DNA of 36,152 nt from a virus. Lineage: Duplodnaviria > Caudoviricetes. The DNA lies in IMG/VR virus record IMGVR_UViG_3300032255_000010, positions 1 to 36,152 of that record. One strand, given 5' to 3'. The stretch's first letter is position 1. Every line of letters begins with the position of its first letter. Positions 4,499 through 31,065 of the stretch are shown here, one piece after another. The notes below the pieces were generated by a model that was not told the origin of the DNA, ran no database searches, and saw nothing but the letters and a program-made list of their open reading frames with translations. The translations under genes were made by a program, and so were the position numbers.

Positions 4499-4927
4499 TT
4501 GAAAAACGAAAATTACAAAGATTGGCCACTTTTTGATGATATGCCAAGCGGCTGGACGATAGACAAAACCTGCGGGTCTCCACTGGCTGGATATGTATTT
4601 ATCAGCGATTGGAGGAGCATTCTGCGCGGCGGGAAACGGGCACTGCTTAGGGTGAGAAAGCCGAAACAGCAGTTGTGCCTCGATGCTCAACCCGTTACCA
4701 AAATGGAATCAGCTGCTGACGAAACGGAAGCGGCAAAAATAGAGCAACCATACCCTGTGAGAACCGTAAACGAACTAGCTAGGGAGCGGTTTAAGCTGAG
4801 GCTGTTAAATGATATTCGTTGTGATTTGATGATCTGCGAATTAGAGGGATGGGGGAAAATGGAATACATAAACGAGATTAGGAGGCTGGTAAATGAAATT
4901 GGCAGCCGAGTTACGATAGACACATAA
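4499..4927 (+). CDS. Cassette-borne hypothetical protein
   Basis: 142-aa ORF ending in the core site of the attI-like element; start uncertain. Confidence 0.7.
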   Translation: MKNENYKDWPLFDDMPSGWTIDKTCGSPLAGYVFISDWRSILRGGKRALLRVRKPKQQLCLDAQPVTKMESAADETEAAKIEQPYPVRTVNELARERFKLRLLNDIRCDLMICELEGWGKMEYINEIRRLVNEIGSRVTIDT

Positions 4928-4978
4928 CACTGGGCTATACACACATGATAAGATAGGAGTAATAAAAACAATGGTTTA
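4922..4978 (-). other. attI-like recombination site heading array B
   Basis: Minus strand GTATAGC-CCAGT-GTTATGT (imperfect L box, 5-bp spacer, R box); 45/54 identical to 31009-31062. Confidence 0.75.
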
Positions 4979-5594
4979 CAGCGGCTGACATTCCATTACA
5001 GCTATGCATAAAGCCAGGTGGCGCTATATTTCCAGAAATAATATTGTTAATTATTGAGAAAATAGGCTATAGTTAATTTTTTATAAATTTCTGGCAATAA
5101 TAAGCAAGGCAAATAAAAACCCACCTATTATAGAGCGACGATCTCTAAGGTGGGTTTAAAGTGTCGAGATGACTGAAGAAGTATCGTTTAATTTAATCTT
5201 CTTGTCAACCTCAATACTAAAACTCTATCTAATTATAGAGTTAACCCAAAAAATAAATCGTCCCCGGTCGGGTATACCAACGGCAGCGGGAATCTGTGTA
5301 GACGGCAATAACTAGCCCTTTGAGACCGAGGGAGCCAAGCGTAACCAGCACGTGAAGGCACAAAATCGGGTTAGTGGTGATCTTTAACGATGCAGGGTGA
5401 CACTCCTGTCCAATACCTGGGTAAGTGTGTTCTGTAACAATATAGTTATTGCTGACTAGCGGAAAGGGACAAATTACAATACTCCCTTTTAAATGATTTA
5501 TGATATGACTGTGATTAATATAGATCACCCTAAGGTCAGTGATATGTATTGCCTAAATAAAATTAACAGTTATGAATATAATAAAGGGGATAAT

Positions 5595-6131
5595 ATGAGA
5601 CTACATAAAGACGACATTTCAGACATAGTTGATCAGTTATTCGAAAAGTTAATTGCTGAAAAGAAAAGTAGAAAACAGCAAAATCTAAGAAGTGCAAGAA
5701 AACCAAATTTTAGTGGTTATCCAGATTGGTTTGAGGGTTTATGGGTAGATTATCCAAGACGTAAGGATGGAAATAGTAAGGCAAAAACGTATGCGTGCTG
5801 CATGCGCAGGATTAAAGAAGGGTATAGTGAAAATTATTTGCATGAGAAAACCAGAGTGTATGCAGCCCATTGTGAATCTGAGGGGAAAATTGGGACTAAT
5901 TTTGTATTAATGGGGAGTACGTTTTTTGGTAGCGATTTGAGATTTGATGATATATGGACTATAGCTAAAACTAATAAATCAGATAATCCAGAGTTTAAGA
6001 TTCCAAGAAATAACGAAGAATTATGGAATTTTGCAAAAAAATATAATTACCCATCACCTGGATCACGAACATTCAGCGAATATCGTAAATTATTAGATAA
6101 TGAGGTTGAGAAACGACTAAAATCAAAATAG
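5595..6131 (+). CDS. Putative phage replication initiator-like protein
   Basis: FEGLWVDYPRRK...SKAK motif typical of phage initiator C-terminal domains; AAGGGG RBS before 5595; position before the nin region. Confidence 0.55.
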   Translation: MRLHKDDISDIVDQLFEKLIAEKKSRKQQNLRSARKPNFSGYPDWFEGLWVDYPRRKDGNSKAKTYACCMRRIKEGYSENYLHEKTRVYAAHCESEGKIGTNFVLMGSTFFGSDLRFDDIWTIAKTNKSDNPEFKIPRNNEELWNFAKKYNYPSPGSRTFSEYRKLLDNEVEKRLKSK

Positions 6132-6139
6132 GAGGAACT

Positions 6140-6328
6140 GTGTATAATAAAATACAGGCAGGTGAATTTGTAACGGTAGCGTCTTTTGATGACCCTGACA
6201 AAGTAATGTTTACCGGGATAGTGTTGTCGTATAATCGTACAGACAGGACATACACAATCAATCCAGGCGTGGATCTAAGAAACCGTGATGTAAACGAGTG
6301 TAGAGTTGCGAGAGTTGAAGATGACTAA
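6140..6328 (+). CDS. Hypothetical protein
   Basis: AGGAGG RBS, GTG start. Confidence 0.6.
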   Translation: MYNKIQAGEFVTVASFDDPDKVMFTGIVLSYNRTDRTYTINPGVDLRNRDVNECRVARVEDD

Positions 6329-6482
6329 ACCAAAAAAACATCAGGCATTTTCAATATCTCGATTCAAGGATAGGGTGAAATCATATCCAGAATTAACTAT
6401 TGAAGACCGTAAAAAAGTTGAAAAGCGCAGGCGACTGGAAGAGATTATGGAAAATAAACAACAAGAAAACGACATCTGGTGA
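6321..6482 (+). CDS. Hypothetical protein (53 aa, MTKPKKHQAF...)
   Basis: Hand-translated; overlaps both neighbours, GTGA junction with ninG. Confidence 0.5.
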   Translation: MTKPKKHQAFSISRFKDRVKSYPELTIEDRKKVEKRRRLEEIMENKQQENDIW

Positions 6483-7096
6483 ATGAAAAAACCTGCAAAG
6501 CTTGTTTATCTGAGTTCAAACCTACCAGGTCGTTTCAGAAAGTGTGCTCACCTAAATGCGCGATTAAATTAGTGAATGCTAATAAAGAAGAGAAAAAGGC
6601 AAAGGCGTGGCGTTTAGAGAAGAAAATAAGAAAAGAAAAGCTGAAAAGCAAAAGCGAGTGGGTAAAAGAGGCAGAATATGCCTTCAGACGGTATATAAGG
6701 GCGCGTGACAGGCTTTTTTACGCAAAGCAAGGCAAACCTCATGAATGTATATCTTGTGGCACTACAAGCCCTCACATTCAATATGCCGCTGGACACTACA
6801 AAACAAAAGGCGCCTATCCAGAGCTAAGGCTGGATGAGAGGAATTGTTATTTGCAATGTAACAAACGATGCAACATGGAGTTATCTGGAAATATCAACGG
6901 GACAAAAGATACCCATGGTTACAAAGAAGGCCTAAAGATGCGATTCGGTGATGAAGAAGGGGAAAAGATCATTGATTATCTTGAGTCCCACCATCCAGCT
7001 GAAAATTGGACTATAGACGATCTTTCAAGGATGAAATCTGAATTTAACAAAAAGGCAAATGATATCGAAAAACAACTGTCTGATATACTTACATAA
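6479..7096 (+). CDS. ninG: NinG/Rap-family recombination endonuclease
   Basis: CKAC...QKVCSPKCA, YIRARD, CISCG, AGHY, N-x3-QC-x3-CN motifs. Confidence 0.9.
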   Translation: MNEKTCKACLSEFKPTRSFQKVCSPKCAIKLVNANKEEKKAKAWRLEKKIRKEKLKSKSEWVKEAEYAFRRYIRARDRLFYAKQGKPHECISCGTTSPHIQYAAGHYKTKGAYPELRLDERNCYLQCNKRCNMELSGNINGTKDTHGYKEGLKMRFGDEEGEKIIDYLESHHPAENWTIDDLSRMKSEFNKKANDIEKQLSDILT

Positions 7097-7160
7097 TAAT
7101 CTTAAATAACCTACAATTATGTAACGTTATGGGTGAACTAAAATCATTAACATTAATTTA

Positions 7161-7466
7161 TTGCGGCCGAAAAAGTGTAACTGCCTGTTATGGGCGTGGC
7201 TGATGTGGTTTAATTGCGGTGGTTGTTTGGTTTGGCGCTGGTCTTATGTTGGTTGGTGGCCGCATGTGTTTTGGTCGCCTGATAGTTGCAGGTTGTTTGA
7301 GTATGTGCCCAATGAGTATGAATGCGGACGATGGTTTCCGCCGTTAATATTTAAAGGCCATGTTCAGGAAATGCTAACTGAGGTTGTTTGCAAAAGTGTT
7401 GTGATTGATGGTATGCATAAAAAAACGTGCATGGATCTGACGCAGCATCTAAAGCGACAACTGTGA
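7161..7466 (+). CDS. Trp/Cys-rich hypothetical protein
   Basis: ORF only; start uncertain. Confidence 0.5.
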   Translation: MRPKKCNCLLWAWLMWFNCGGCLVWRWSYVGWWPHVFWSPDSCRLFEYVPNEYECGRWFPPLIFKGHVQEMLTEVVCKSVVIDGMHKKTCMDLTQHLKRQL

Positions 7467-7484
7467 TTATTTAGGTAACTGAAA

Positions 7485-7709
7485 ATGTTCAAAAAATGGG
7501 TAATAAACATACTGATCAGTATTGATCAACTAGCTAATGCTCTGACTGGCGGTGATCCAGATGAGACTATATCTAGCCGTATGGGTAAACGATTGGATAA
7601 CTGTAAGGCGTGCCGGTTTATCTGCAAAATACTTAATAGGTTAGATTGGCGCAATGTTGACCATTGTAGAAATGCTATTGAACTAGACGAGGGTAAAGAT
7701 GGATTATAA
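7485..7709 (+). CDS. Small phage protein (IDQLANALTGGDPDETISSR type)
   Basis: Motif recurrent in phage late regions; function unknown. Confidence 0.7.
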   Translation: MFKKWVINILISIDQLANALTGGDPDETISSRMGKRLDNCKACRFICKILNRLDWRNVDHCRNAIELDEGKDGL

Positions 7710-8136
7710 AAAATTACAATCTGAGATTATTGGTAATCCATCATTATATGGATCAATGACCGATCAGCAAATTGCAGATGAGCTGAATCTAGCAGATAAG
7801 GTTTCTACCCAAGAATACAGAATCACCGCACTAGGCATGATGAAGATTCTCGGTGCTACTAATGGCGCTGCCTACCTGGACGCGCTTACTACGGTCGCTG
7901 CACAGAATAGCGCTGTTAAGTGGGCCATGGGCAATATCTTAACAACTGGGATAGATGTGGGTGACCCTGAGGTGGTAGCAATGCTTAACATGCTGACTGG
8001 TACTGGGGTGTTAGTAGCATCAGATACGACAAAAGTGCTAGATGCTGCAAAGGTAAGCCAATCACGGGCACAGCAACTCGGGTTTAGGTATATTTCGGCG
8101 CAGATGGTCGGAACAGCTTTAGGGGGTAATTGGTAA
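7699..8136 (+). CDS. Hypothetical protein, putative virion accessory module
   Basis: Tightly packed operon. Confidence 0.7.
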   Translation: MDYKKLQSEIIGNPSLYGSMTDQQIADELNLADKVSTQEYRITALGMMKILGATNGAAYLDALTTVAAQNSAVKWAMGNILTTGIDVGDPEVVAMLNMLTGTGVLVASDTTKVLDAAKVSQSRAQQLGFRYISAQMVGTALGGNW

Positions 8137-8573
8137 TGGCTGAAATAAATTGGTCTGCGTTTACAGACAGAGGTAATCTACTTAGTACTGTATTCGACAG
8201 TATCGCAGATGCAACACTGTCAGCCGCAACAACAGCGCTTGATAATGCAGCGAACAAAGATACTCACTGCCTAATTGAGCTGAACTTAGGCTCGCTTAAT
8301 CCTGTTGCTCCAGGTTATGTCGAATTATATATGACTAAAGCCCCTGACGGAATCAACTATGAAGAAGCTCCGATTATTGGCGGTACTGATCGGAATACCC
8401 TTATAGCTACAATCCCAGTTCCAGCTGGGACATCAACCAAACGTATAATGACCGGATTAATCTCGTTGCCACCATGCCCTGTTAAATTTTATTTGGGGAA
8501 TCAGCTAAATGTGACGACTGCTGCATCTGGTAATACTATGGATGTTTATACAGCTAATTTGACGAGCGCATAA
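8136..8573 (+). CDS. Hypothetical beta-rich protein, putative virion accessory
   Basis: TAATG overlap; A/T/G-rich composition. Confidence 0.7.
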   Translation: MAEINWSAFTDRGNLLSTVFDSIADATLSAATTALDNAANKDTHCLIELNLGSLNPVAPGYVELYMTKAPDGINYEEAPIIGGTDRNTLIATIPVPAGTSTKRIMTGLISLPPCPVKFYLGNQLNVTTAASGNTMDVYTANLTSA

Positions 8574-8574
8574 G

Positions 8575-9828
8575 ATGGGTGCTGCGCATCCTGCTTTTGA
8601 TAGGTTATTTTTAGCCCCGGAGCTGTTACGGCCGGGGGTTAAGCCTATCAGTCCTGTCGAGATTGATAGAAGCAATAAGCTAGGCAGTACTATCAGTTAC
8701 TATTTACCATTAAATGGAAGTGGTCTTGAGATTGTAACTGGGAGACGTCTGACCGTTGGCGCTGGAGGCTCCTATGTTACAGATAGCAATGGTCTATCTT
8801 TACGTGGGTCAGGTACTGCGGCCTGCGCATCTATTCCGCTCGATCTTTCTTCCTACACTAGTTGTACGGTCTCATTCTGGATGTACTGGGACGCATACGC
8901 TAATAATGATGATCTAGCGTTGGAGTATGGCGAAAATTTTTTAACTAATTCAGGTTTTTTAATAGACCCAAATTCAGGTTATCCATCTAGCGGTTTTTTT
9001 CAGGCAGGTGTTGGCAGCCCGGGAAAGGCAAATAATCAATACTGGACAAGACCAACATCTGGCGAATGGCATCATTATGCGCTCACATTCGATAGAGCTG
9101 TTGGGACATCTCAATCAACTAATCTATACGTTGATGGTGTTTTTAAAACAAAATCTGGGGTAGCTGGATATCAATCTGATGTAACAAATAATTTCGGCAA
9201 TAATTATCTGTATATATTCTCACGCAATAATACGTCATTGTTTGGCGCTGGAAAAATGTTTGGGCTGACAATACGTGGCCAGCACATAATGACAGCCGAT
9301 GAGGTATTTTATGAATTTATCGACCCATACCAGATATTAAAACCTGCCGGTACGATAGCATTGCCGATTGCTGCGGGTGGCGGCTCATCCGCGCTAACCG
9401 GTACAGTCACCGCCTCAATCACTGAATCAGATATTGTCACTGGCGGTAAGACTATAATTTTAACATTGACAGGGGATACATGGGTGGCTGCTGGAGCGAC
9501 TTTCGATGCTCAAAGACAGAATATCATTGACGGATTGGATTCAGCACAGGCAGAAGCGACAGGATGGGATGCAGTTGTTAAAGCAGGGCTTACCCCATCA
9601 GATGTAGTCAGGACATCAGATACTGTCTGTACAATCACACTACCTGCGTTAGCCACGTATGACATAACAGCTCAAGAGACGATAACGGCTACAATACCAG
9701 CAGCGGTATTAACTGGTGCTAGTCCGATTGTTGCAGCACCTACGTTTACGGTTGATTATACAGCAGGTGGTTTTATGCCACATTGGGGCAGAGTCTCACA
9801 GCAAAGCAGAATTTTAGGAGCAATGTAG
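8575..9828 (+). CDS. LamG/concanavalin A-like domain protein, putative virion fibre or decoration
   Basis: TVSFWMY...GEWHHYALTFD...LYVDG signature; Thr/Ala-rich C-terminal domain. Confidence 0.75.
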   Translation: MGAAHPAFDRLFLAPELLRPGVKPISPVEIDRSNKLGSTISYYLPLNGSGLEIVTGRRLTVGAGGSYVTDSNGLSLRGSGTAACASIPLDLSSYTSCTVSFWMYWDAYANNDDLALEYGENFLTNSGFLIDPNSGYPSSGFFQAGVGSPGKANNQYWTRPTSGEWHHYALTFDRAVGTSQSTNLYVDGVFKTKSGVAGYQSDVTNNFGNNYLYIFSRNNTSLFGAGKMFGLTIRGQHIMTADEVFYEFIDPYQILKPAGTIALPIAAGGGSSALTGTVTASITESDIVTGGKTIILTLTGDTWVAAGATFDAQRQNIIDGLDSAQAEATGWDAVVKAGLTPSDVVRTSDTVCTITLPALATYDITAQETITATIPAAVLTGASPIVAAPTFTVDYTAGGFMPHWGRVSQQSRILGAM

Positions 9829-10998
9829 ATGTATCCACGTAATGCAGTATCACCAGAGAGGCTGGCAATAGGCCAGGTAGTGCTTATTGCTGACGGGACA
9901 GTTCAGACGACTGGCGTATCTATCGTAGTCCGAGGACAAGGAGGTGCAGAGGCAGCCGGGGGCGGAACAACAGCCTACGGGGCTGATGGCACTGTTTATT
10001 ACACTCCAACTCAGGCAGAGACAAACTATACATCTTTCGTGGTTATCGCATATAAAGCTTCATGCTTTTCTGCCTCGCAAACGGTTATTACTACAGCATC
10101 TGCTACACCGGGCAGAGTTGTACTGTCTAGTCAGACTCACACCGGGGCGGTAATTCCAACTGTTTCAACTGTGACAGACGGAGCGAAATCAGCTACAGCA
10201 CTAAGCACAGCAACATGGACAGCAGCAAAAGCCGCTTTCATAGATGCAGCAATCAGTGGCCGATTAGCAACTTCTGGCTATACGGCACCTGACAATGCTG
10301 GTATTGCAACACTGTTAACTCGCATTGTGGGTACACTGGCAGCAGGTACTCACAATCCTGCAACAGCGGCCCAGATAGCTGTATTGAGCGACTGGATTAA
10401 TGGCGGGAGATTGGATCTGATATTGGACATTATTGCAGCAGATACAACAACAGACATTCCTGCTCAGATATCAGCGCTTAATAATGTGGCAGCTACTGAC
10501 ATTGTGTCTGCCGGGCCAATTACTACTCTTTCTGGCGCGGTAGTTAACGTAGACACGGTGGATGTAACGACTACAAATACTGATATGCGCGGCACCGACA
10601 ATGCAGCAACAGCCGTGGAGCTTGCAAAAGTTCCAAAATCAGACGGGACTTCTACTTGGAATTCAACTGCTTTAGCATCAATTAACGCCGAGGTAGATAC
10701 CGCACTTGCAGAATCAACAGCGGTCGGAATTAAGAAAAACACCGCATTTTCAAATTTTGAATTCCTGATGGTGGATGCAACAGACCATGTAACACCTGAA
10801 GTGGGCCTAACAGTAACCGGGCAGAGGAGCATAGACGGCGGAGCTTTCGCAACGATATCCGGTACGATAGCAGAGGTATCTAACGGGATTTACCAAGTCG
10901 ATCTATTGGCTGCCGATACAAATGGAGATGTAATAACGTATAGATTCTCCTCCGCTGGCGCTGCAGACCGATTTGTGACTGTTAAGACAAGGGCATGA
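9829..10998 (+). CDS. Ala/Thr-rich putative structural (fibre-like) protein
   Basis: Composition; N- and C-terminal beta domains with G.Y...T.A.TN-like motifs. Confidence 0.6.
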   Translation: MYPRNAVSPERLAIGQVVLIADGTVQTTGVSIVVRGQGGAEAAGGGTTAYGADGTVYYTPTQAETNYTSFVVIAYKASCFSASQTVITTASATPGRVVLSSQTHTGAVIPTVSTVTDGAKSATALSTATWTAAKAAFIDAAISGRLATSGYTAPDNAGIATLLTRIVGTLAAGTHNPATAAQIAVLSDWINGGRLDLILDIIAADTTTDIPAQISALNNVAATDIVSAGPITTLSGAVVNVDTVDVTTTNTDMRGTDNAATAVELAKVPKSDGTSTWNSTALASINAEVDTALAESTAVGIKKNTAFSNFEFLMVDATDHVTPEVGLTVTGQRSIDGGAFATISGTIAEVSNGIYQVDLLAADTNGDVITYRFSSAGAADRFVTVKTRA

Positions 10999-11771
10999 TT
11001 CAGCACTGGATAAAGTACTCAGATCACCAGTACTTCGGTGACTGGGGTGCTTTAAACACTTTTACTGCGTCGGTAGATACAACCGCGCCGGTATTAACAA
11101 ACCCCACAGGGACGACAACAGGTTCTACCACTGCAAGTGGTTCTGTCGATACAGACGAAGGCAATGGAACGCTTTACTACCTGGCAACAACCAATGCCAG
11201 CGAACTATCTGCAACGATTAAATCTGGCGAATCTCAGGCAGTAACAGCAACTGGACCGCAGAATGTCACAATATCGGGGCTAATACCCGAGACTACATAT
11301 TATTTTCATTACGTTCACGATGATAATTCGTCAAACGAGTCAAATATCGTTTCAAGTAGTTCGTTTATAACGGATTTTACTCCGGTTAGTGATGAACAAC
11401 CTACTGGCGGCTGGTGGTTTTCATACGAGAAAGAAATAGAAAGACAACGTGAAAATCGTAGAAAACGCAATGAGTTAGAAGATAAAGCTAAAGAAATACA
11501 GGAAGAAATTGACCGAGAGCTAGTAAAAGAACTCCAGGCAAAGGAAATTGAAAGGGAACGAATAGAGGACCTCACCCGGTTAAAAAACCTTGCCAAGCAA
11601 CATAGACAGGAATTACGCTCAGTACTAAGTGATCGAGTACTAAAAGCTGCCGAATCGGCTATAATGGTAGGAAACTACTCATCAATGGAGCGATTCGAAA
11701 GAGAATTGTCCAGGGCAAGAGAAGAAGAGATGTTTTTGCTGCAGGCGACTATTATAATTTTAAATGTTTAA
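10995..11771 (+). CDS. Ig/FN3-like domain plus coiled-coil protein
   Basis: DTTAPVL...ISGLIPETTYYFHYV...SN FN3-like pattern; E/R-rich C-terminus. Confidence 0.65.
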   Translation: MIQHWIKYSDHQYFGDWGALNTFTASVDTTAPVLTNPTGTTTGSTTASGSVDTDEGNGTLYYLATTNASELSATIKSGESQAVTATGPQNVTISGLIPETTYYFHYVHDDNSSNESNIVSSSSFITDFTPVSDEQPTGGWWFSYEKEIERQRENRRKRNELEDKAKEIQEEIDRELVKELQAKEIERERIEDLTRLKNLAKQHRQELRSVLSDRVLKAAESAIMVGNYSSMERFERELSRAREEEMFLLQATIIILNV

Positions 11772-11780
11772 GGAGTTCAT

Positions 11781-11822
11781 ATGGGCTGCAAGAAGAAAAA
11801 AGGCGGCGGTAAGCGCAAATGA
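11781..11822 (+). CDS. 13-aa basic micropeptide MGCKKKKGGGKRK
   Basis: AAGGAG RBS; stop overlaps the next ATG (ATGA). Confidence 0.55.
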   Translation: MGCKKKKGGGKRK

Positions 11823-12151: not shown

Positions 12152-12152
12152 T

Positions 12153-12350
12153 ATGTGCGATAAACATCAAAAAATGATGAGATTAGTATTATCAGGTCAG
12201 GGAAATAAAATACTGGGACACGCAGATGATTCAATGGTTTATATGTCTATATTCGATCAATCAATCATCAAAACAAGCACAAAAAATGGATCATCAGTAA
12301 CAGAATCAATACCTTATACACACTTGTTAATATCTAACATTATCAAATAG
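12153..12350 (+). CDS. Hypothetical protein
   Basis: 65-aa ORF in operon. Confidence 0.5.
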   Translation: MCDKHQKMMRLVLSGQGNKILGHADDSMVYMSIFDQSIIKTSTKNGSSVTESIPYTHLLISNIIK

Positions 12351-12365
12351 ATGGAATTGCATACA

Positions 12366-14832: not shown

Positions 14833-14838
14833 AGAAAT

Positions 14839-19245: not shown

Positions 19246-20016
19246 ATGACAAAGAAATTAGGCAAAAAGCGGAAAGAAAAGAGACAAGTGGTTCCTGCTA
19301 GCTGGGATGTGTATATCGCAACCCCAGCTTACGACGGCAAAGTAGATTGTGACTATTCCCAATCGTTAGCTGAATCAGCTTTTTGTTCACCGTTGTACCA
19401 GGTCAAAATGACTGCAGGAGTTATGGGAAACGGCGCGTTTATTGACTTGGCAAGAAATATTTTTGTAAAGATTTTTCTTGAAGACTTTCCAGAAGCTACG
19501 CATTTATTCTTTATAGATGCGGATCTCAAGTTCCCACCCAATGCGTTTATAGGACTGATTAGGTCGGGCAAGCCAATTTGTGCTGGCGTTTATCCGCGCA
19601 GACAATCACCACCTGACTATCCAGCCAAGTGGACACCTAACCCAGAGGTTGGCGGGTTATGGATAGAGGACGATTGGTTGATGTGCGACAGAGTACCTAC
19701 TGGCTTTCTGTGTATAACAAGAGAGGTTTTGGAGGAAATGTCGAAAGATGCAATACAGATGAATATTCATGGTCAGGAAGGCAAGGTTCCTCAGTTATTT
19801 TATACAAAGCTTGACGAAGAAGGCCGCTTTGTTGGTGAGGATTACTGTTTCTGTGATGACTATATAAAGAAATACGAGAAGCCTATCCCGGTTTGGCCTG
19901 ATATTGACTTTGTCCATGGGGGATATAAAGGTAACTACAGCAAATGGCTTAGCGAACAAATCGAAGCAGAGGAAAATAGAGTAGTCGAAATCAATCAAGA
20001 CACGAGTGCTGCATAA
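19246..20016 (+). CDS. GT-A fold (family 2-like) glycosyltransferase
   Basis: IATPAY, ARN, THLFFIDADL (DxD), TGFLCI, GEDYCFC. Confidence 0.8.
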   Translation: MTKKLGKKRKEKRQVVPASWDVYIATPAYDGKVDCDYSQSLAESAFCSPLYQVKMTAGVMGNGAFIDLARNIFVKIFLEDFPEATHLFFIDADLKFPPNAFIGLIRSGKPICAGVYPRRQSPPDYPAKWTPNPEVGGLWIEDDWLMCDRVPTGFLCITREVLEEMSKDAIQMNIHGQEGKVPQLFYTKLDEEGRFVGEDYCFCDDYIKKYEKPIPVWPDIDFVHGGYKGNYSKWLSEQIEAEENRVVEINQDTSAA

Positions 20017-20528
20017 TGGAATTGCTTATAGGGTGCGGAAACAACTTAAAGAAAAAGGTAACTTTCAATGAGATACCTTTAGAGTGGTCTGGAGAATTGA
20101 TTACACTTGACAACGACCCTACTGTTGATTGTGATGTACGGCATGACTTGAACCAGATTCCTTACCCGTTTGATGATGATATGTTTGACGAGATTCATGC
20201 CTATGAGGTTCTTGAGCATTGTGGTAGACAAGGAGATTGGAGGTTTTTCTTCGATCAATTCAGCGAATTTCACAGGATTTTAAAACCAGGTGGTTTTTTT
20301 ATAGCAACCTGCCCGATGTGGGACTCACAGTGGGCGTGGGGTGACCCAGGTCATACAAGGTTGATATGTGATGGATCGTTGACATTCTTATCACAGAAAG
20401 AATATGAGAGACAGGTAGGCGTTACAGCGATGACCGATTACCGGGGGTGGTATAAGGCAGACTTTGACCTGTTCGCTAAAGACGAAACTGATGACACGTT
20501 TGGTTTTGTATTGAGGGCTGTTAAATGA
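20016..20528 (+). CDS. Class I SAM-dependent methyltransferase-like protein
   Basis: LLIGCG, PFDDDMFDEI...VLEH, HRILKPGG, DPGH. Confidence 0.85.
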   Translation: MELLIGCGNNLKKKVTFNEIPLEWSGELITLDNDPTVDCDVRHDLNQIPYPFDDDMFDEIHAYEVLEHCGRQGDWRFFFDQFSEFHRILKPGGFFIATCPMWDSQWAWGDPGHTRLICDGSLTFLSQKEYERQVGVTAMTDYRGWYKADFDLFAKDETDDTFGFVLRAVK

Positions 20529-22706: not shown

Positions 22707-24337
22707 GTACATTACGAACAAGGGCAGCAAAAGGGAGTGAACTTACACACGCCGAGCTTGATGCTAATTTCAAACGAATTGTATCCGCAAAGACATCTGC
22801 GTATTCTTGTTTAATTAGTGACAATAGGAATTGGATTGTAGGTAATCATGCAACAACCCCATTTGTTATCACACTTGGCGATGCAGCGACAATGGCGGCG
22901 TCTGAAACAGGAGATTATGAGGTCACAATACATAACGTTGGGGCAGCGGTCGTTACCGTATCCCGTGCTGGAACTGACACCATCGACGGCGCGGCCACGA
23001 GTATTGCTCTCAACCAGTACGAATCAGTCACGCTAAAGGTTAATGCCACAAATAATGGTTATGAATCAATCGCTAGAGGACTTGGCGGACTAACCTCAAC
23101 TGTTGCTGAACTTAATATACTTGATGGAGTTACAGCTACGACATCCGAATTAAACTACGTTGACGGGGTAACAAGCTCTATTCAGACGCAAATCGACGGT
23201 GCCGTGAAAATTGCAGGGGCACAGACAATTACTGGCGCGAAGACGTTTACTAACGCGGTTACTGTTGAAGGAGACGGTCCGCTTATAAAACTTAGTGATA
23301 CAACTGCCGCCGCTGATGATTTTTGGGTTCATGCAAACTCAGACATATTCTACGTCTTAACAGACAGGAATGATGATGGAGCTTGGGAGACGCCGCATCC
23401 TTTGGAATTAAATAACACTACGTCAGTCGGATCATTATACGGCAGTCCGATTATAACATCAGCGTCTATCGGCTCGCAGACGGCTGGTGCTATAACCAGT
23501 CAGGGCACACTAGCAACGATGAATGCTGTGGGTCAGAATGAGTTGAAAACGTCAAACGCTGGTGAAGTATCTACGACGAGCACAAATGGTGCGACTTCTA
23601 TTTTACCTGGAGGAGCCTATGGATTCTACCCTAGACTCAGGTCGAGTTCGTCATCTGGAACTGGTTATTGGGGTAGTAATGCTGTGGCGGATACAAATTA
23701 CGTGGCATATGGTTTCGGCACTAGTTATGTTACGAGCATTCGTATTTATACAAGTAGTGGTAGTACTGCATACGCACAACAAACCTATGTGACTGCATCA
23801 CCTCCATACGATCTTGGTGACGGTGAGGCTCCATTTTTTATATTTGCAAATGTGGACTCACAGGGCAATATCGTTAGTGTATATTCTGCTGATACCCCTC
23901 CATGGATTTATAACGGGCCAACAAAAGTTACTGCTGATCGTCATGCTAAGGACGGTAAGCAATATATCAAACATAAGAATTTCTCTATGCCTGCACCTAT
24001 CAAGTCCAATTCATCAATGGCGCAAAAGGTAGCTTACAAAAAAGCTGTACTCGAAGCAAAACGCTCAGCGGTTGAGGAAGAAATAGAACTTACTCCTTTA
24101 ATGAAAAATGCGGACATGGATCTAATCCCACACCCGTTTGAAGCAAGTCCGGATTTTACACCAATTTTACTTGACCCAATGTCAAAAACCACTATTGACT
24201 TGATGGAATTGTGTGATAATGGTAATGGGGAAAGTGTTAACGAGATCATTCATGATAACTATATCAATGTTGGCAACACACCACTAGCTAGAAGTGGCCC
24301 AGCCGGACTAATGATTGTAGATGCGAAGTGGAAATAA
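22703..24337 (+). CDS. Tail fibre/receptor-binding protein
   Basis: KGSELTHAELDANF anchor, ELNILDGVT/ELNYVDGVT repeats, QTITGAKTF. Confidence 0.75.
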   Translation: MSTLRTRAAKGSELTHAELDANFKRIVSAKTSAYSCLISDNRNWIVGNHATTPFVITLGDAATMAASETGDYEVTIHNVGAAVVTVSRAGTDTIDGAATSIALNQYESVTLKVNATNNGYESIARGLGGLTSTVAELNILDGVTATTSELNYVDGVTSSIQTQIDGAVKIAGAQTITGAKTFTNAVTVEGDGPLIKLSDTTAAADDFWVHANSDIFYVLTDRNDDGAWETPHPLELNNTTSVGSLYGSPIITSASIGSQTAGAITSQGTLATMNAVGQNELKTSNAGEVSTTSTNGATSILPGGAYGFYPRLRSSSSSGTGYWGSNAVADTNYVAYGFGTSYVTSIRIYTSSGSTAYAQQTYVTASPPYDLGDGEAPFFIFANVDSQGNIVSVYSADTPPWIYNGPTKVTADRHAKDGKQYIKHKNFSMPAPIKSNSSMAQKVAYKKAVLEAKRSAVEEEIELTPLMKNADMDLIPHPFEASPDFTPILLDPMSKTTIDLMELCDNGNGESVNEIIHDNYINVGNTPLARSGPAGLMIVDAKWK

Positions 24338-24819
24338 TGGATAACAAATCAGTAACGCTAAAAAACTCAGGAATAGAATATAACATTGAGAAATATTCAT
24401 ATATTGCAGATGAGCTAAATAGCCTTGCTGAGAAGCATTACTATGAAGTTGAAGACGGTCGGATGCCGTTCAAGATTAACAAAGATGCTTACATTGAAAT
24501 TGACAGGAACGATGGTCTTTTATTAATAACTGCTAGGGATAACGGAGAGCTTATAGGGTATATACTTAATTTTATATCAAATAGTTTGCATAACGCTGAT
24601 TCATTGACATCAACTAACGATGCTATATATGTGAAGCCTGGATATAGAGGGATGGGCATATTTAAGCAACTTTTTGAAAGAATGGAGGATGAATTAAAGA
24701 TATCTGGAGTCGAGTACGTTGTTATGACAATCAAGAAGCAATTTGATATAGGTTTATACCTTGAAGAAAAAGGGTTTACTGAAATTGAACATAATTATGA
24801 GAAGTATCTAGGAGAATAA
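24337..24819 (+). CDS. GNAT-family acetyltransferase-like protein
   Basis: IYVKPGYRGMG motif A; sits before the ejection genes as in many podoviruses. Confidence 0.8.
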   Translation: MDNKSVTLKNSGIEYNIEKYSYIADELNSLAEKHYYEVEDGRMPFKINKDAYIEIDRNDGLLLITARDNGELIGYILNFISNSLHNADSLTSTNDAIYVKPGYRGMGIFKQLFERMEDELKISGVEYVVMTIKKQFDIGLYLEEKGFTEIEHNYEKYLGE

Positions 24820-24820
24820 A

Positions 24821-25768
24821 ATGGGTACAGCGGCAGCAATAGTAGGCGGCTCAGTTGTTTCAGGCATTCTAGGAAACAGCGCGGCAAATAGAGCATCAGC
24901 TGCGGCAAGTTCAGCAACTGCAGCTTCAATCGCTGAACAACGTCGTCAGTTTGATTTAAATCGCAGTGACACAGAGCCATATAGACAGTCTGGCGTTAAC
25001 GCGCTAAATGCCTATAACCAGGCTATGGGTCTTCAGGGTGAAACAGGAGTCAGACAGGAAGACGCACCATTGCCTGCGTTTCAAGACAACACAGCGCCAT
25101 TGCCAGAATTTCAATATGGAGGAATTCCATTACCAGAGTTCAACGGTGGTGATAGATTCAAATATAACCTTGAAGGAGATGCCGGGTACAGGTTTGCCCG
25201 TGATGAGGCAATCAAAGCGGCTAATAGAGGAGCTGCAACACAAGGACAATTCAATAGCGGCAATCGCCTAGCAGCAATCGCGGATCGCGTTACAGGAGTG
25301 GCACAACAGTATGCAAACGATGCATTTAACAGGCAGATGGGCGAATCAGTTGCAAACTATGGCCGAGATGTTAATGAATACAACCTTGGATATAATCGAG
25401 CGAATGATTTGTATGGTCGAGAACTAACCAAATACGGCCTTGACTACCAAAAGAATAAAGATGATTACAATAGAAACCTAACAAAATACGGATTGGACTA
25501 CCAGCAGAATCAAGATACATACGGTAGGGGTCAAAACTATCTTAACCGCCTGCAAGGATTGTCTGGCATGGGGCAGACATCAGTTTCACAGTCAGGTGCA
25601 GCAGGTGCAAACATGGCAAATAGTATCGGGAATATTTTATCTGCTAATGCTGCAGCTCAGGGAAGTGCAGCACAGAATAGATACAGCGCTATCAACAACG
25701 CTATCCAGGGCGGGGCTTCGAATTTTATGCTGTATAATTACCTTAATCCGCCAAAACCAGAGACTTAG
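24821..25768 (+). CDS. DNA ejection protein, P22 gp7-like
   Basis: Gly/Ala-rich hydrophobic N-terminus, EQRRQFD...PYRQSG..AL, GYRFA, YLNRLQGLSGMG. Confidence 0.75.
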   Translation: MGTAAAIVGGSVVSGILGNSAANRASAAASSATAASIAEQRRQFDLNRSDTEPYRQSGVNALNAYNQAMGLQGETGVRQEDAPLPAFQDNTAPLPEFQYGGIPLPEFNGGDRFKYNLEGDAGYRFARDEAIKAANRGAATQGQFNSGNRLAAIADRVTGVAQQYANDAFNRQMGESVANYGRDVNEYNLGYNRANDLYGRELTKYGLDYQKNKDDYNRNLTKYGLDYQQNQDTYGRGQNYLNRLQGLSGMGQTSVSQSGAAGANMANSIGNILSANAAAQGSAAQNRYSAINNAIQGGASNFMLYNYLNPPKPET

Positions 25769-25777
25769 GGGTATAAA

Positions 25778-26953
25778 ATGCAGGACTTCAAGCCGTTCAA
25801 TTATGGCAATGTATTAGCTATGGGCGAAAACATCAAAGGTGCCCGCCTACAAAACACCATGAGGCAGCAGCAGTTAGACCCTAACAGCCCTCAGAACCAG
25901 CTTGTACAGGAGCAATTGACCGGGGCAAGGCAAGGTAACGTCTTAGCGCAACAGCAGGGCCAGAGACAACAAACTCAGTTTGATCAACAGCAAAAAGTTG
26001 AAAAACTGAAAATGCTAAACATGGCTGCCGCTGAAAGTCTCCAGAACCCACAAGCGCTATCAAAATGGATCCCTGAACTGCAAAATATCGGTGAGCTTCC
26101 TCAAGACTTTGACGCATCAACAGTGACGCCTCAAATTCTACAGCAGATATATGATGGGACATCTGCAGCGCTTGGTATTAAACAAAAAAACATAGAATCT
26201 TATGGTGATTTTGAGCAAATACCAGGAGCATCTGAAGGAACATTGGGGCAGAAGGACTTATCATCAGGAAAGTATATAAACATACAGACAAAAAAATCGC
26301 CATTAGTAAATATTGATCAGACACAGGAGAAAGAAGAGAGCAAAGCGTGGGGCAAATCACTGGTTGCAAATTTTGATGATGTCGCTAAACGTGCTCAAGG
26401 AGCCGAGGATAGTTTGTCTAATTTGCAAATAGCATCATCTATAGATGTGTCCACAGGCGCTTTCGAGCCATCCAAGGCATGGGCGGCGGCTATTGCACAA
26501 GGGCTAGGGTTTAATCCTGAAAATATTGGGCTAGAAAAAGCTGATAATGCGCAGGCATATAAAGGCATTGTTCAGAATCTTGTCCTCACGAAAATGCAAG
26601 CTCAGAAAGGCCCGCAAACTGAGAATGACGCTAAGAGAATAGAATCAACAATAGCACAACTTGGGAATACACCAGAAGCTAAGCGGTTCTTGCTTGATTC
26701 GGCTATTGCGCTAGAAGAAAGGAAAATAGAGGAAAGGGATTTTTACCTTAATTACAAATCTGAGAACAAAAGCCTTGACGGCGCAAGGAGTGCGTGGAAT
26801 AAGTATAAGGCTAAAACGCCATTACTAGGCGATAACCCTAAAACCGGAAGACCTGTATTCTATAATCAATTCAAGCGCGCAATGCTTGAGGCTAACCCTG
26901 GCGTAACAGTAGATCAAATAAATACTATGTGGCGTAGTAAATATGGCCGATAA
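25778..26953 (+). CDS. Putative DNA ejection protein (gp20 position)
   Basis: Q-rich helical protein, KGPQTEND; synteny. Confidence 0.6.
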   Translation: MQDFKPFNYGNVLAMGENIKGARLQNTMRQQQLDPNSPQNQLVQEQLTGARQGNVLAQQQGQRQQTQFDQQQKVEKLKMLNMAAAESLQNPQALSKWIPELQNIGELPQDFDASTVTPQILQQIYDGTSAALGIKQKNIESYGDFEQIPGASEGTLGQKDLSSGKYINIQTKKSPLVNIDQTQEKEESKAWGKSLVANFDDVAKRAQGAEDSLSNLQIASSIDVSTGAFEPSKAWAAAIAQGLGFNPENIGLEKADNAQAYKGIVQNLVLTKMQAQKGPQTENDAKRIESTIAQLGNTPEAKRFLLDSAIALEERKIEERDFYLNYKSENKSLDGARSAWNKYKAKTPLLGDNPKTGRPVFYNQFKRAMLEANPGVTVDQINTMWRSKYGR

Positions 26954-28571
26954 ATTGATTGATCCGTTCGATAACGAACGACAACAGGCGACTAAAAGCA
27001 AAGTCATTGAGTCTGATATTAGTGGTCTTGTAGACCCTTTCGATACTGAGATGGTTGCTTCAGAACAAAGTCAGCAGAAAAGTCAACTGCCTGATATAAG
27101 GAAGGATGCCAAGTCGATTGTAGGCGCCGGGTTCGAGCCGTTAAGATCAGTCGTTACAGGCATGGCAGCCGAGCCATTAGCCGGTATAGCTGGCTTGGCG
27201 TCACTTCCTTTTGGATCTGGTAGGGCGACTGAGAATATTGCAGCTATTAGAGATAAGCTGACATACAAACCAGAATCTGAAGAGGGGCAAAAGGCACTTA
27301 GTGCATTTGCTGAAACGGTTGAGCCGGTTATTAGCAAGCTTTCACAGGCAGAGGAAGGTTTAGGTGATGCCGGGTATGAATCTGGCGGGCCAATCCTTGG
27401 TGCAATCGGTAAGACAGCACCAACGGCGGCATTAACAGCATTGGGACTACCAAAAGTGCGTTCTGGACTGAAATCTGCCGGAAAGACAGTTCAGAAATCA
27501 CTTGAAAAGACCAAAGTAAAAAAATTATTAGGTGAATCTACACCTTCAACTTCCGAATTAAAACAAACAGCGAGAGGTATATATCGTGAGCTTGATAACT
27601 CTGGTGCTACTATTAATTCTAGCAGCGTTAATAGGTTGGGGGGAGAACTCCAATCATTAGCAAAGAAAGAAGGTTTTAACCGTAGGATACATCCAAAAGT
27701 TAGCGCTGCACTTGATGAAATCAATGATTCAACAATAAGAAGCCTTACAGTTTCTGAAGTTGATATTTTGAGAAAAGTAACTAGAGCGTCAGCAAGGAGC
27801 TTAGACCCAGATGAGGCTCGATTAGGTTCTATACTTGTTGAGAAAATAGACGACTTTATGGACAACCTTGGGCCAAATGATTTTGTTGGCGAGAAAGCAG
27901 CTAATGTCGGCCCAAGATTCAAGGAGGCCAGACAGTTATGGAGCAGAGCTAAAAAGTCCGAGTTAATAGAAGACGCCATTGAAACAGCTAAAAACCAAGC
28001 GTCAGGATTTGAGAATGGAATAAGGGTTCAGTTTAGGTCAATCATTAATAACAAAAAGAAGAGCAGAGGGTTTAGTTCAGAAGAATTAGACGCTATGAAA
28101 AAGGTTGTTAGAGGCGGAACTGCTGAAAACATGGCTAAGGCCATTGGTAAATTTGGATTTTCCGAGGGCCAGGCTAGCGGAATGCTATTAAGCTCTCTTG
28201 GCGTAGCAGGTGGTGCTGCAATTGGCGGTGCGCCTGGAGCGGTTGCTGTTCCGCTTATAGGCCAGGTATCTAAAAGTCTTGCGCAAAAACTTACAAGAAA
28301 TAATGCCGCCGCAGCAAATCTTATTGCAAGAGCTGGTAAAGATGGATCAAAAGTAGTTGATGCTTATATAAAATCTGTTCCAAAAGCTAGCAGAAATGTT
28401 AGTGATTTAACTGAGTTGTTATTAAGACCAGAAGTAAGCATTAAAAAATTAAAAGCACTTAGTATTCCAGAAAATGCGACAGGAAACGCAAAGATTGTTG
28501 CAGATGCTGTTTATTTCGCTGCATTAATAAAATCTCAGCAAAACAAAGAAGATGACAACAGACAACAATAA
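26943..28571 (+). CDS. Putative DNA ejection protein (gp16 position)
   Basis: DPFD repeats at N-terminus; Gly/Ala-rich hydrophobic segments; synteny. Confidence 0.6.
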   Translation: MADKLIDPFDNERQQATKSKVIESDISGLVDPFDTEMVASEQSQQKSQLPDIRKDAKSIVGAGFEPLRSVVTGMAAEPLAGIAGLASLPFGSGRATENIAAIRDKLTYKPESEEGQKALSAFAETVEPVISKLSQAEEGLGDAGYESGGPILGAIGKTAPTAALTALGLPKVRSGLKSAGKTVQKSLEKTKVKKLLGESTPSTSELKQTARGIYRELDNSGATINSSSVNRLGGELQSLAKKEGFNRRIHPKVSAALDEINDSTIRSLTVSEVDILRKVTRASARSLDPDEARLGSILVEKIDDFMDNLGPNDFVGEKAANVGPRFKEARQLWSRAKKSELIEDAIETAKNQASGFENGIRVQFRSIINNKKKSRGFSSEELDAMKKVVRGGTAENMAKAIGKFGFSEGQASGMLLSSLGVAGGAAIGGAPGAVAVPLIGQVSKSLAQKLTRNNAAAANLIARAGKDGSKVVDAYIKSVPKASRNVSDLTELLLRPEVSIKKLKALSIPENATGNAKIVADAVYFAALIKSQQNKEDDNRQQ

Positions 28572-28588
28572 ATAAAAGTTTAATAAAA

Positions 28589-28846
28589 ATGTCCGATAAA
28601 GAAGAAATAAAAGAAGCCATGCGTGAAGCGCTTAATGAGTGGAATAGTATTAATTCTAAAACTCATGAAGAACATCATAAGTTTATAGATATACTAATTG
28701 TTGATGCAGAGGTTAAAAAGGAGCGCGTTGAAAAGATTAAAACTAGCATTATAGGCTGGGGGTTTATTACTGGTATAGGGTCAATTGTGGGTGGGCTGGG
28801 TTATGCAGTTACCCAGTGGGTAAAATCAACCAAAGGGGGCGGTTAG
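28589..28846 (+). CDS. Small membrane protein (possible holin or lysis regulator)
   Basis: One C-terminal hydrophobic helix; upstream of the endolysin. Confidence 0.55.
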   Translation: MSDKEEIKEAMREALNEWNSINSKTHEEHHKFIDILIVDAEVKKERVEKIKTSIIGWGFITGIGSIVGGLGYAVTQWVKSTKGGG

Positions 28847-29179
28847 GTGATTGAACTAGCAGTATTTTCGTATATTTCTGGTGTTGTTCTGTGGGTATTT
28901 TATCTCGCAGCGATGAAGTTAAAGGCCCATAAAGATGAGCTAACCGGCGTAGCTAAATTTTTTGGTTATCAGATCATATTTGTCGGATTGGTTATTGATG
29001 TAGCATTCAATATTGTTGTAGGTTCAATTTTATTTATGGCATTGCCAGTGGGCGGCCTGACATTCACATCAAGATTGATTCATTATAAAAACTCTGGCGG
29101 GTATCGAGGGAAAGTACAAAAATGGTTTTGTGGGAATTTGTTGGACATGTTTGATCCATCTGGACCACATTGTAAATAG
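28847..29179 (+). CDS. Membrane protein
   Basis: Two to three hydrophobic segments; DPSGPHC end. Confidence 0.65.
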   Translation: MIELAVFSYISGVVLWVFYLAAMKLKAHKDELTGVAKFFGYQIIFVGLVIDVAFNIVVGSILFMALPVGGLTFTSRLIHYKNSGGYRGKVQKWFCGNLLDMFDPSGPHCK

Positions 29180-29713
29180 GTGATCAAAATGGCACTTAAT
29201 AGTGATGATATCGCCCTTTTAGACCCAGAAATGCAGGAGCGGGTAGAGGAGTTCATTGCCCATTGTAAATCTGCACAGTTCGGTGTGTTGCTGTATAGCG
29301 GTCGACGATCTTTTGAAGATCAGGCAAGGCTTTTCAGACAGGGCCGTTCGATGGGCTCAATCAAGGCAAAGGCTGCTGAGTTGCGTGATAAGTGGCAGCG
29401 GCCTGACCTGGCTGACATCCTGATTGGCGTAGGCCCACAGAAGGGAAAAAAGATTGTCACAAACGCTGGTCCTGGCCAGTCTGACCATAACTATGGCGGT
29501 GCGGTCGATGGCGTACCTATGGTTGGCGGCAAGCCCGTCTGGGGCACTGACTCATACGAGGATAAGGAAGTTTGGCACCAATACGGAATGATTGCGATAA
29601 GTGCTGGGCTTGAATGGGCGGGTAACTGGACGAGCTTCAGGGAGTATCCACATTTAAAGCTGCCGAGCATGGATTGGCGCGAGCTGATTAAGGATTCTGA
29701 ATATGAGCTATAA
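29180..29713 (+). CDS. Endolysin, M15-family peptidase
   Basis: RSFEDQARL, VTNAGPGQSDHNYGGAVD, LEWAGNW...EYPH. Confidence 0.9.
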   Translation: MIKMALNSDDIALLDPEMQERVEEFIAHCKSAQFGVLLYSGRRSFEDQARLFRQGRSMGSIKAKAAELRDKWQRPDLADILIGVGPQKGKKIVTNAGPGQSDHNYGGAVDGVPMVGGKPVWGTDSYEDKEVWHQYGMIAISAGLEWAGNWTSFREYPHLKLPSMDWRELIKDSEYEL

Positions 29714-29912
29714 CGGAATCATAAAGAAAAGTCGTTCGCTTGACCTAGCCGCATTAAGTCAGTTTGTTGACGCAGGCGCTCTTGCCATATTGGCGTATTC
29801 CCCCGAAGACCTTGGGATTACCGTTCCTACCTATGCAGTTGTGCGGGTAGCAATCAACGTACTGCAGGCGTATTTGCGCTTCAAGACAACAGGCCCTGTA
29901 GGAGATAAATAA
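29703..29912 (+). CDS. Putative holin
   Basis: Hydrophobic segments, LRFKTTGPV end; follows the endolysin. Confidence 0.6.
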   Translation: MSYNGIIKKSRSLDLAALSQFVDAGALAILAYSPEDLGITVPTYAVVRVAINVLQAYLRFKTTGPVGDK

Positions 29913-30121
29913 TGATTAGTAAACTAATGGGTTTGGTAACTGGAATTATGGCGGCTATAGCGCTGTTCTTTAAGGTTAAAGCCGATTCTACTCGTAACAA
30001 AGCTCAGAAAGAGAAGATCGACAAATATGAGGAGGTTATCGACGATGTGGAAACTGCTAGGCGTACTCGCGCTGATGATAATGAGCGGATGCGCGTTGAA
30101 GACAAATACACCCGTAAGTAA
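29912..30121 (+). CDS. Putative inner-membrane spanin (Rz-like)
   Basis: N-terminal TM helix plus charged helical tail; overlaps a lipoprotein gene. Confidence 0.7.
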   Translation: MISKLMGLVTGIMAAIALFFKVKADSTRNKAQKEKIDKYEEVIDDVETARRTRADDNERMRVEDKYTRK

Positions 30122-30227
30122 TTACTGTCTCCTCTATAATCCTATCTACACGTCACCAGATGACACTAGAGAGACTATAGATCAGGTTGTTGATAACAAT
30201 GTAGTCTACGACAAACTATGCGAATAG
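30045..30227 (+). CDS. Putative outer-membrane spanin lipoprotein (Rz1-like)
   Basis: GAGGAGG RBS, signal peptide with lipobox MSGC, overlapping frame. Confidence 0.75.
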   Translation: MWKLLGVLALMIMSGCALKTNTPVSNYCLLYNPIYTSPDDTRETIDQVVDNNVVYDKLCE

Positions 30228-30288
30228 TTGACAATATTTTGACTAACAATCAATCATATTTAGACATTAGCACATAAGCAATTATCTT

Positions 30289-30331
30289 TTTTACAACCTA
30301 ACTCAAATAAATATTGGGTTAGGTTGTAAAA
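30289..30331. terminator. Inverted repeat between convergent operons (probable bidirectional terminator)
   Basis: TTTTACAACCTAACTCAA / TTGGGTTAGGTTGTAAAA. Confidence 0.55.
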
Positions 30332-30355
30332 GAAACGCACTAGAAAGCACACCAA

Positions 30356-30691
30356 CTATTTTCTATACTCCCTGAGTTCTTCACGTTTAGTAGCCTGCTG
30401 GGTCTGCCATAATCCAGCGCCCATTTTAGCTATTTCAAGGTTCCATCTGCATAGCTCAGACTCCCCCACAGCGTCAGCAAGCGCCGATAATAGCTTGATG
30501 TACTCATCGTCCGCCCTAGCCTCTCTTTCCTGTGCTGCGGCGGTTTTATGCTCAGGCTCATATTTTTTCATTATGATGGCAAGCTTAGACTTTTTGAAAT
30601 CTTCCAGATAAACAGCCTCTCTTTTAGCTTTGGCGTATTTCGCCGCTATCTCTCTCAGCTCGCTTAATCGTCTTTCTATGCTATTGTCCAT
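30356..30691 (-). CDS. Coiled-coil hypothetical phage protein
   Basis: 111-aa helical ORF at the end of the leftward operon. Confidence 0.7.
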   Translation of the reverse strand: MDNSIERRLSELREIAAKYAKAKREAVYLEDFKKSKLAIIMKKYEPEHKTAAAQEREARADDEYIKLLSALADAVGESELCRWNLEIAKMGAGLWQTQQATKREELREYRK

Positions 30692-30710
30692 TTATCACCC
30701 ATTTCACATA

Positions 30711-31016
30711 TTATTCATCAAACCGCTTAAACCTTGGTAATGACTTCCTGATGCTGTTCATTAAAAATGTTATCCCGTGAATCCCAATCGGCTCATCGTT
30801 GCAATAAATGCTGTAGTTATCAATTCTATTTCCTTCAAGACACTCAAATATTGCGACTTCTTTTGTGTGCCTGCGTTCTATTGTGATTTTGATGTAAGGA
30901 TCAATATCTACAAAGTCAGTATGCTGATCCTTTTCAGCGAGTCTTTTTCTTTCTTTTGCGGCGTTTGCTTGTAATGACCACAGTTTTCGTGCTTTTTTAT
31001 TTGCTCTATAAGTCAT
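30711..31016 (-). CDS. Hypothetical protein starting inside the attI-like element (MTYRANKK...)
   Basis: AGGGAG RBS and ATG at 31016. Confidence 0.6.
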   Translation of the reverse strand: MTYRANKKARKLWSLQANAAKERKRLAEKDQHTDFVDIDPYIKITIERRHTKEVAIFECLEGNRIDNYSIYCNDEPIGIHGITFLMNSIRKSLPRFKRFDE

Positions 31017-31065
31017 TGTTTTTACGCTCCCTACCTTATCAGGTGTGTATAGCCCAGTGTTAGGT
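31009..31065 (+). other. attI-like recombination site heading array A
   Basis: GTATAGC-CCAGT-GTTAGGT; inverted copy of 4925-4978. Confidence 0.75.

Follow-up and report, generated by a model that had tools for sequence, protein, structure and literature searches.

Arrays of gene cassettes with attC sites but without an integrase are termed CALINs (clusters of attC sites that lack an integron-integrase), defined as at least two attC sites with no intI nearby (PMC4889954). Qi et al. (2023) reported such arrays in phages, often together with DNA methyltransferases, and their data include recombination of phage attC sites with attI1 by IntI1 (PMC9892861). In the Shewanella prophage M16-3, as at the locus described here, an attI stands at the start of the CALIN; unlike here, that attI is of the Shewanella host type and intI is present in the prophage (PMC9892861). 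The methods, results and conclusion of that paper make no mention of an attI family specific to phages, of accessory motifs or of a linked gene. Direct repeats (DRs) are missing from most attI sites, and recombination of a chromosomal attI with attC by IntIA depends on host factors not yet identified, according to one account (PMC8191803); the attI sites of most integrons are unknown and not searchable, according to another (PMC4889954). Here we describe a site found at the heads of two attC arrays in a tailed-phage genome of 36,152 nucleotides, the whole of IMG/VR record IMGVR_UViG_3300032255_000010 (hereafter the window; linear and 97% complete). We propose, with a probability of about 0.7, that this twin site is an entry point for cassettes, likely a double-stranded site of the attI type that is recombined in trans by a host IntI.

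The two copies are inverted relative to each other, and positions 4925-4978 align with the reverse complement of 31009-31062 at 45/54 nt without gaps, with the first 20 nt identical. They form the longest inverted pair within the window, no copy beyond these two is present anywhere in the record, and an exact inverted 20-mer occurs in 1 of 20 Markov-resampled windows. The initial annotation of this sequence had already pointed to this pair, to its position at the start of each array, to an attI1-like layout, to a match past the crossover and to an integration host factor (IHF)-like 13-mer, and each of these observations stands. Both copies head an attC array (11 and 4 attC sites); the L box, 5-bp spacer and core are in the same register as in attI1 as read from a plasmid; the sequence past the crossover matches the R'' of the first cassette over 11 nt in array A and 8 nt in array B; and the 13-mer has one mismatch in each copy to the consensus WATCAANNNNTTR, which we adopted from that annotation and which also appears in the published literature, the two copies differing solely at its N positions. 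Two features had been overlooked. The copy at 31062 doubles as the leader of a gene of 101 codons, with the start codon falling within the IHF box, and at 16-27 bp from the crossover there is a conserved palindrome. The copy at 4925 is gene-less, with a stop after five codons. The components are as follows.

31009..31065, plus strand (cassette top strand plus): head of array A, an attI-like platform, with the crossover G|TT at 31059/31060
31047..31065, plus strand: simple site of head A, comprising the L box (31047-31053), spacer (31054-31058) and R core (31059-31065)
31033..31044, unstranded: imperfect 12-bp palindrome of head A (ACCT-N4-AGGT), at a fixed distance from the crossover
31009..31021, minus strand: IHF-consensus box of head A, sharing bases with the small gene's start codon and having one mismatch
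30711..31016, minus strand: site-linked small gene (101 aa), in the position that intI has in an integron
4922..4978, minus strand (cassette top strand minus): head of array B, the second, gene-less copy, with the crossover at 4928/4927
4934-4940, 4943-4954 and, on the plus strand, 4966-4978: L box, degenerate palindrome and IHF box of head B
4971-4988: five-codon relic of the start of the small gene in head B

The arrays that these copies head are real attC arrays. Complementarity between R' and R'' beyond the shared core amounts to 68/84 over 14 cassettes against a permuted mean of 39.9, and 0 of 100,000 permutations reach 68. In the attC sites L'' is 8 nt long and has an extrahelical base, as is usual for substrates of IntI, and the hairpin arrangement R''-L''...L'-R' is seen to varying degree in 15 array sites. 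The position of the extrahelical base makes the top strand plus in array A and minus in array B, so that the twin site is upstream of cassette 1 in both. With 11 and 4 attC sites and no integrase, as judged with a heuristic finder, both arrays are CALINs.

31059..36152, plus strand: first part of array A, with attC sites at 31543-31653, 32216-32294, 32575-32649, 32996-33118, 33388-33463, 34129-34188, 34515-34647 and 35974-36033
84..1036, plus strand: presumed continuation of array A past the contig end, with attC sites at 84-207, 555-687 and 908-1036 (the last weak); array A is presumably joined across the contig end
3518..4928, minus strand: array B, with attC sites at 4412-4472, 4118-4202, 3804-3861 and 3518-3604, and with its open reading frames (ORFs) oriented against the attC top strand

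Viral, metagenome and genome collections supplied relatives of the 101-aa gene, and the search for copies in other phages that the initial annotation had suggested turned up the site before an unannotated gene of about 100 aa at some 70 partly redundant loci with varied backbones. The loci fall into two clades with support of 100/100, between which the proteins are 20-30% identical. Clade B was reached by profile search, which gave 47 further viral loci, of which four are 5'-truncated and three have no identifiable start; 40 were scored for attC. Of the 33 clade-A loci that were scored, 31 have a TAAC-to-ATG distance of 46 nt, and the other two have 45 and 44 (L033 and L034 fell outside this count through the start picker, yet show the same spacing; the duplicate or partial loci L025, L026, L029, L041 and L045-L048 were left unscored). 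Upstream of TAAC the clade-A relatives are unrelated in sequence, and downstream neighbours are diverse, including excisionase/integrase-like, primase-like and terminase-like ORFs as read from their translations. The attC sites are confined to the cassette side. At 30 clade-A loci there are 57 head-oriented and 3 opposite attC in 51 kb upstream and none in 86 kb downstream; at 40 clade-B loci there are 65 head-oriented, 4 opposite and none downstream, giving 122, 7 and 0 for both clades together. In 20 relatives the R'' of the first cassette is complementary to the core at 78/120 positions, compared with 43.7 after permutation. One complete phage of 82 kb (G017) has a single gene and four sites (L071, L085, L087 and L089), which share a strand and have one or more attC apiece on the cassette side. 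A search with DNA alone recovered a new prophage-like case (G835) with the small gene, three head-oriented attC sites and an integrase-like ORF. The GenBank phage set gave no match to the small protein or the site, and the plasmids searched gave chance matches only.

Comparison of related phages indicates that the site is where arrays differ. In four sets of sites that are identical over 32 nt, the number of distinct first cassettes is 2, 2, 2 and 4. One phage with another replication module (G003) has the same 46-nt site and a gene that is 95% identical, but a different first cassette. In a contig of run X2, 31058 is followed immediately by 33457, where cassette 6 has its G|TT, so that 2,398 nt are skipped, and contigs of runs X3, X4 and X5 leave the window sequence at the same head; these contigs are from public assemblies of related phages in two studies, besides the likely source run, and need not represent a single population. 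Together these comparisons show the site to be the fixed point of first-cassette differences, the cassettes having been swapped exactly at G|TT. The two heads (4921-4981 and 31006-31066) are also inverted repeats flanking a 26-kb replication and morphogenesis block, which recombination between them would invert. No recombinant contig at 4925 representing such an inversion was found in public assemblies, in which contigs drop rare variants.

These observations bear on the proposition that what stands here is a decayed attC's right arm (L'-spacer-R'), duplicated and non-functional. The L'-5 bp-R' layout of attC is indeed the same as that of an attI simple site, and the gene-start relic in the 4925 copy indicates that this copy arose by duplication. 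A relic would not, however, repeatedly take different first cassettes, nor hold exact spacing and two motifs across clades that are 20-30% identical, and neither head has a pairing R''/L'' partner; we consider this proposition largely refuted and very improbable. The heads were also considered as folded attC sites, and this was rejected, there being no pairing left arm and 60-nt folds of -1.5 and -2.7 kcal/mol.

Numbered on the gene strand from the T of TAAC, the site has its core at 1-4, spacer at 5-9 and L box at 10-16, and attI1 (read from plasmid NZ_CP029446.1, with its features taken from PMC12901181) shares this register. The R core follows GTTRRRY with the crossover at G|TT, RRRY being matched loosely, as it is in the attC cores of the arrays; in head A the bases past the G are part of cassette 1. 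The TA of the L box (12-13) is invariant in all 23 distinct clade-A sites and is at the same two positions in attI1, which likewise lies at the head of an array, has no hairpin and is about 55 bp long. Unlike attI1, the phage site has a palindrome and an IHF consensus instead of DR1/DR2 cores, the position of intI is taken by the 101-aa gene, no Pc-like promoter lies within the site, and most cassette ORFs face it. Among chromosomal gammaproteobacterial attI sites, for which 16 candidates were read upstream of intI, the 16-nt simple sites are very similar to those of the phages, those of clade B especially: simple sites at real intI genes and clade-B sites are alike at 10-15 of 16 nt (best of set, with no random control). 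By eye, several of these chromosomal sites have a palindrome of their own and some have an IHF-like box farther out, at about +63 to +76, but the palindrome sequence and spacing differ, the sites are linked to intI and none scores on the phage profile. Thus, the IntI-facing core appears to be common to the phage site and bacterial attI, and the accessory arm to be phage-specific. The palindromes adjoin the L box in the candidate chromosomal sites L167, L171, L173, L176, L183 and L053, and an IHF-like box is seen at about +75 upstream of intI in L154, L157 and L176; accessory arms may be common at bacterial attI sites.

The arm of the phage site contains two motifs. The imperfect 12-bp palindrome, a candidate operator for an accessory protein, is at 19-30, and at 18-29 in most of clade B. 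Of 37 clade-B loci, 33 have the start of its right half at 24 or 25, and the distance to ATG varies from 29 to 48 nt; since the phase of the palindrome is constant while ATG moves, the palindrome is anchored to the crossover and not to the start codon. (The correctly spaced palindrome pattern is present in 28 of 30 clade-B records, a circular figure because the pattern was derived from those same loci.) The IHF consensus at 42-54 is perfect in 13 of the 23 distinct clade-A sites and has one mismatch in nine and two in one, against a background of 0.017% perfect matches per random position and 0 of 39 other start codons in the window within one mismatch. Codon 2 has its third base inside the box, and in 21 of 22 genes this base is T, compared with 35/156 at nearby fourfold sites. 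These constraints argue that the IHF consensus is under selection in clade A, with IHF binding itself predicted. Seven copies lack the gene, and six of them retain the box: four are perfect and in place, one is perfect and shifted by one base (by eye), and the 4925 copy has its single mismatch, with the box lost in the seventh. Five of the gene-less copies have lost the ATG and kept the IHF box.

It could be argued that the conserved DNA is instead the regulatory leader of the small gene, an autoregulatory operator plus an IHF box, and that IntI uses its edge as a hotspot of the attG type. The element always adjoins the start of the gene, the ATG lies inside the IHF box, many copies have purine runs resembling Shine-Dalgarno sequences, and any GWT is reported to accept cassette insertion by IntI (Loot et al., 10.1101/2022.09.11.507474). 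The attG sites of that report are, like the phage site, double-stranded IntI targets away from intI, and GWT is present here, but attG consists of GWT with short motifs flanking the cut on both sides, whereas the phage site is long, conserved across phages and reused, with its information confined to the non-cassette side. Moreover, the palindrome keeps step with the crossover rather than with ATG, the TA of the L box does not vary, gene-less copies without ATG retain the IHF box as well as the palindrome, and attC cassettes are headed by all but one of the seven gene-less copies, the remaining one being at a contig end. Because gene-less copies retain the IHF box, the site is more than a ribosome-binding leader, and we regard the leader reading as unlikely. 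A simple promoter or ribosome-binding module was also rejected, as neither head has a sigma-70 match and gene-less copies keep the site. A match to the sigma-70 consensus (10/12) does occur at 5180-5208 on the minus strand; in the top-strand direction it lies upstream of head B by about 250 bp, and it is a possible Pc-like or antisense promoter.

The small gene is present once per genome in the window, in G019 and in G017, which have 2, 2 and 4 sites respectively; one gene for up to four sites is as expected of a trans-acting factor. A site without the gene is found in L146 and L153, records that are only 28% and 43% complete. The protein has a median net charge of +6 over its first 30 residues, and its predicted fold is mostly one long basic N-terminal helix, with four strands and another helix after it (AlphaFold models with predicted local distance difference test scores, pLDDT, of 70 and 81). 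Foldseek with both models gave no match at E<=0.001, which shows neither novelty nor absence, and the best VIA-align Z values are 5.1 and 3.8. The window protein has no Pfam or PHROG family, no usable Atlas match and no PDB sequence match, and there were no longer or fused forms among the candidates scored, a weak test. From the co-occurrence of gene and palindrome in both clades, the charge and the symmetry, we infer that the small protein binds the palindrome. The data fit autoregulation as well as they fit a role in recombination, and the protein may serve in both.

As to the enzyme, no tyrosine recombinase was found in the window. Of 18 clade-A records, five have such a gene and the three that are at least 90% complete (the window included) have none; those of the five resemble phage integrases, mostly beside excisionase-like ORFs. 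No IntI above cut-off was found in 30 clade-B records, and neither these records, the window nor the searches of intI regions show a cognate intI adjacent to the site. Three bacterial genomes contain the module (a Cellvibrio bin, a Thioalkalispiraceae bin and the prophage-like case), and in G001, G002 and G835 IntI is encoded on a separate contig in each. A host attI was considered as the source of the site and rejected; the attI at one intI of the Cellvibrio bin has a different palindrome.

A variant of this reading accepts the entry site as real and assigns it to XerC/D of the host, activated by the small protein, or to a Xer-like recombinase of another element. General Xer geometry, with TAA, a 6-7 bp centre and a TA-containing arm, is also compatible with the core. 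A precedent is XafT of TLC-phi, a phage-encoded activator of a host recombinase (PMC6744903). There the logic is alike, a phage site and a small factor exploiting a host tyrosine recombinase, but XafT serves Xer/dif and prophage integration, not cassette capture (PMC6744903). The attC sites with their 8-nt L'' and extrahelical base are nevertheless of the IntI-substrate type, clade-B simple sites match attI candidates at real intI genes at up to 15/16 nt (again without a random control), and IntI1 has recombined phage attC sites (PMC9892861), so that we find a Xer enzyme quite unlikely.

Several observations weigh against assigning the site to a host IntI, or limit the counts given above. Copies had been expected between bacterial intI genes and their first cassettes, which would also have identified the host; they were not found upstream of 31 intI genes, where the best profile score is 5.4 compared with at least 15.3 for left-out phage sites (three of these regions are shorter than 150 bp), and the host is not identified by the site. 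The full clade-A pattern, run on two samples of 401 genomes that overlap in part, gave 1/401 and 3/401 matches, never beside intI; extra pattern matches in G001, G002 and G492, which have no attC and no gene, were judged to be chance. The absence of the module beside bacterial intI makes it a phage-specific family, and no cognate IntI emerged from these searches. The presence of IntI in 3/3 hosts against a base rate of 112/301 (37%) is a weak association, at least two of those genomes are metagenome bins, and the base-rate tally and one of the 401-genome samples include three unpublished genomes. As the window is linear and 97% complete, a gene may be missing from the record. The attI1 DR cores (AAC) are missing at both registers in 23/23 sites. 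The IHF box is absent in all 34 clade-B rows and therefore cannot be essential to the family; the window copies have a mismatch in both IHF boxes, and the palindrome of the 4925 copy is degenerate. Many loci are near-duplicates, leaving 23 distinct clade-A cores, and three of the seven gene-less copies are from one genome. Finally, attC sites were mapped with a home-made finder and not with IntegronFinder.

On balance, the initial proposal of phage-borne attI mimics detached from intI is supported, the site being a fixed exchange point and neither a folded attC nor a ribosome-binding or promoter module. Without intI and DRs it is no member of a complete integron, yet it appears to act like an attI, a role assigned by comparison. 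A plausible mechanism is that host IntI would bind the R and L boxes and the folded attC bottom strand of a cassette would be joined at G|TT, with IHF bending the arm about 45 bp out and a dimeric protein on the palindrome replacing the DR1/DR2 sites of attI1. Given one gene per genome and up to four sites, the likeliest candidate for this protein is the product of the small gene itself, at odds slightly short of even. More tentatively, this protein, of a new family, may be a dedicated recruiter or activator of host IntI at phage sites, making site and gene a portable module. Since most cassette ORFs face the site, they would be read from phage early operons and not from a Pc promoter.

The remainder of the window encodes a P22-like gene set (terminase, portal, scaffold, coat and ejection proteins), together with a replication initiator, NinG, an exonuclease and DNA methyltransferases. 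Inside the structural block, at 19246-20528 and 24328-24819, are an ORF of PHROG 1574 (function not assigned) and methyltransferase-like and acetyltransferase-like ORFs. In array A, which includes two DNA methyltransferase cassettes, the ORF of cassette 1 is on the top strand and the others are inverted. The start codon of the inverted left-hand ORF is inside five of the 15 attC sites (32216-32294, 32996-33118, 33388-33463, 34515-34647 and 555-687), consistent with the assigned ownership of ORFs by attC sites; in these five it sits in the hairpin loop, such that translation runs through the attC arm, and these cassettes look built for phage operons. Cassette 1 (31084-31548; PHROG 1244), the sole top-strand ORF, is antisense to the phage operon and may be a bacterial-type capture; a single weak homolog, without a clear attC, was found in 400 genomes. 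One cassette of 1.3 kb (34641-35980) contains four ORFs, with a perfect R'/R'' match over 10 nt. A weak attC-like site on the top strand at 30241-30324, about 730 bp upstream of head A and between convergent genes, may be a terminator or due to chance.

Phage CALINs are already known, and we found no published account of the site-gene module; the literature covered, outside subscription journals and the bioRxiv and Qi supplements, gave no phage-specific attI family, IHF in attI recombination or small gene of this kind. Clusters of attC in phages have so far been viewed as accidental cargo, and a conserved, reused, phage-specific entry site suggests instead a purpose-built platform for gene capture, probably run by a host enzyme. 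For the host-factor roles the module suggests two candidates, IHF and a protein that binds the palindrome, each at a fixed position, and the family provides a searchable profile, with which the prophage-like case was found blind. If this is correct, unrelated phages would capture and reorder cassettes, such as those for DNA methyltransferases, on demand; the module would be the integron counterpart of the XafT-carrying exploiters of Xer, and the small protein the first dedicated protein cofactor of recombination between attI and attC.

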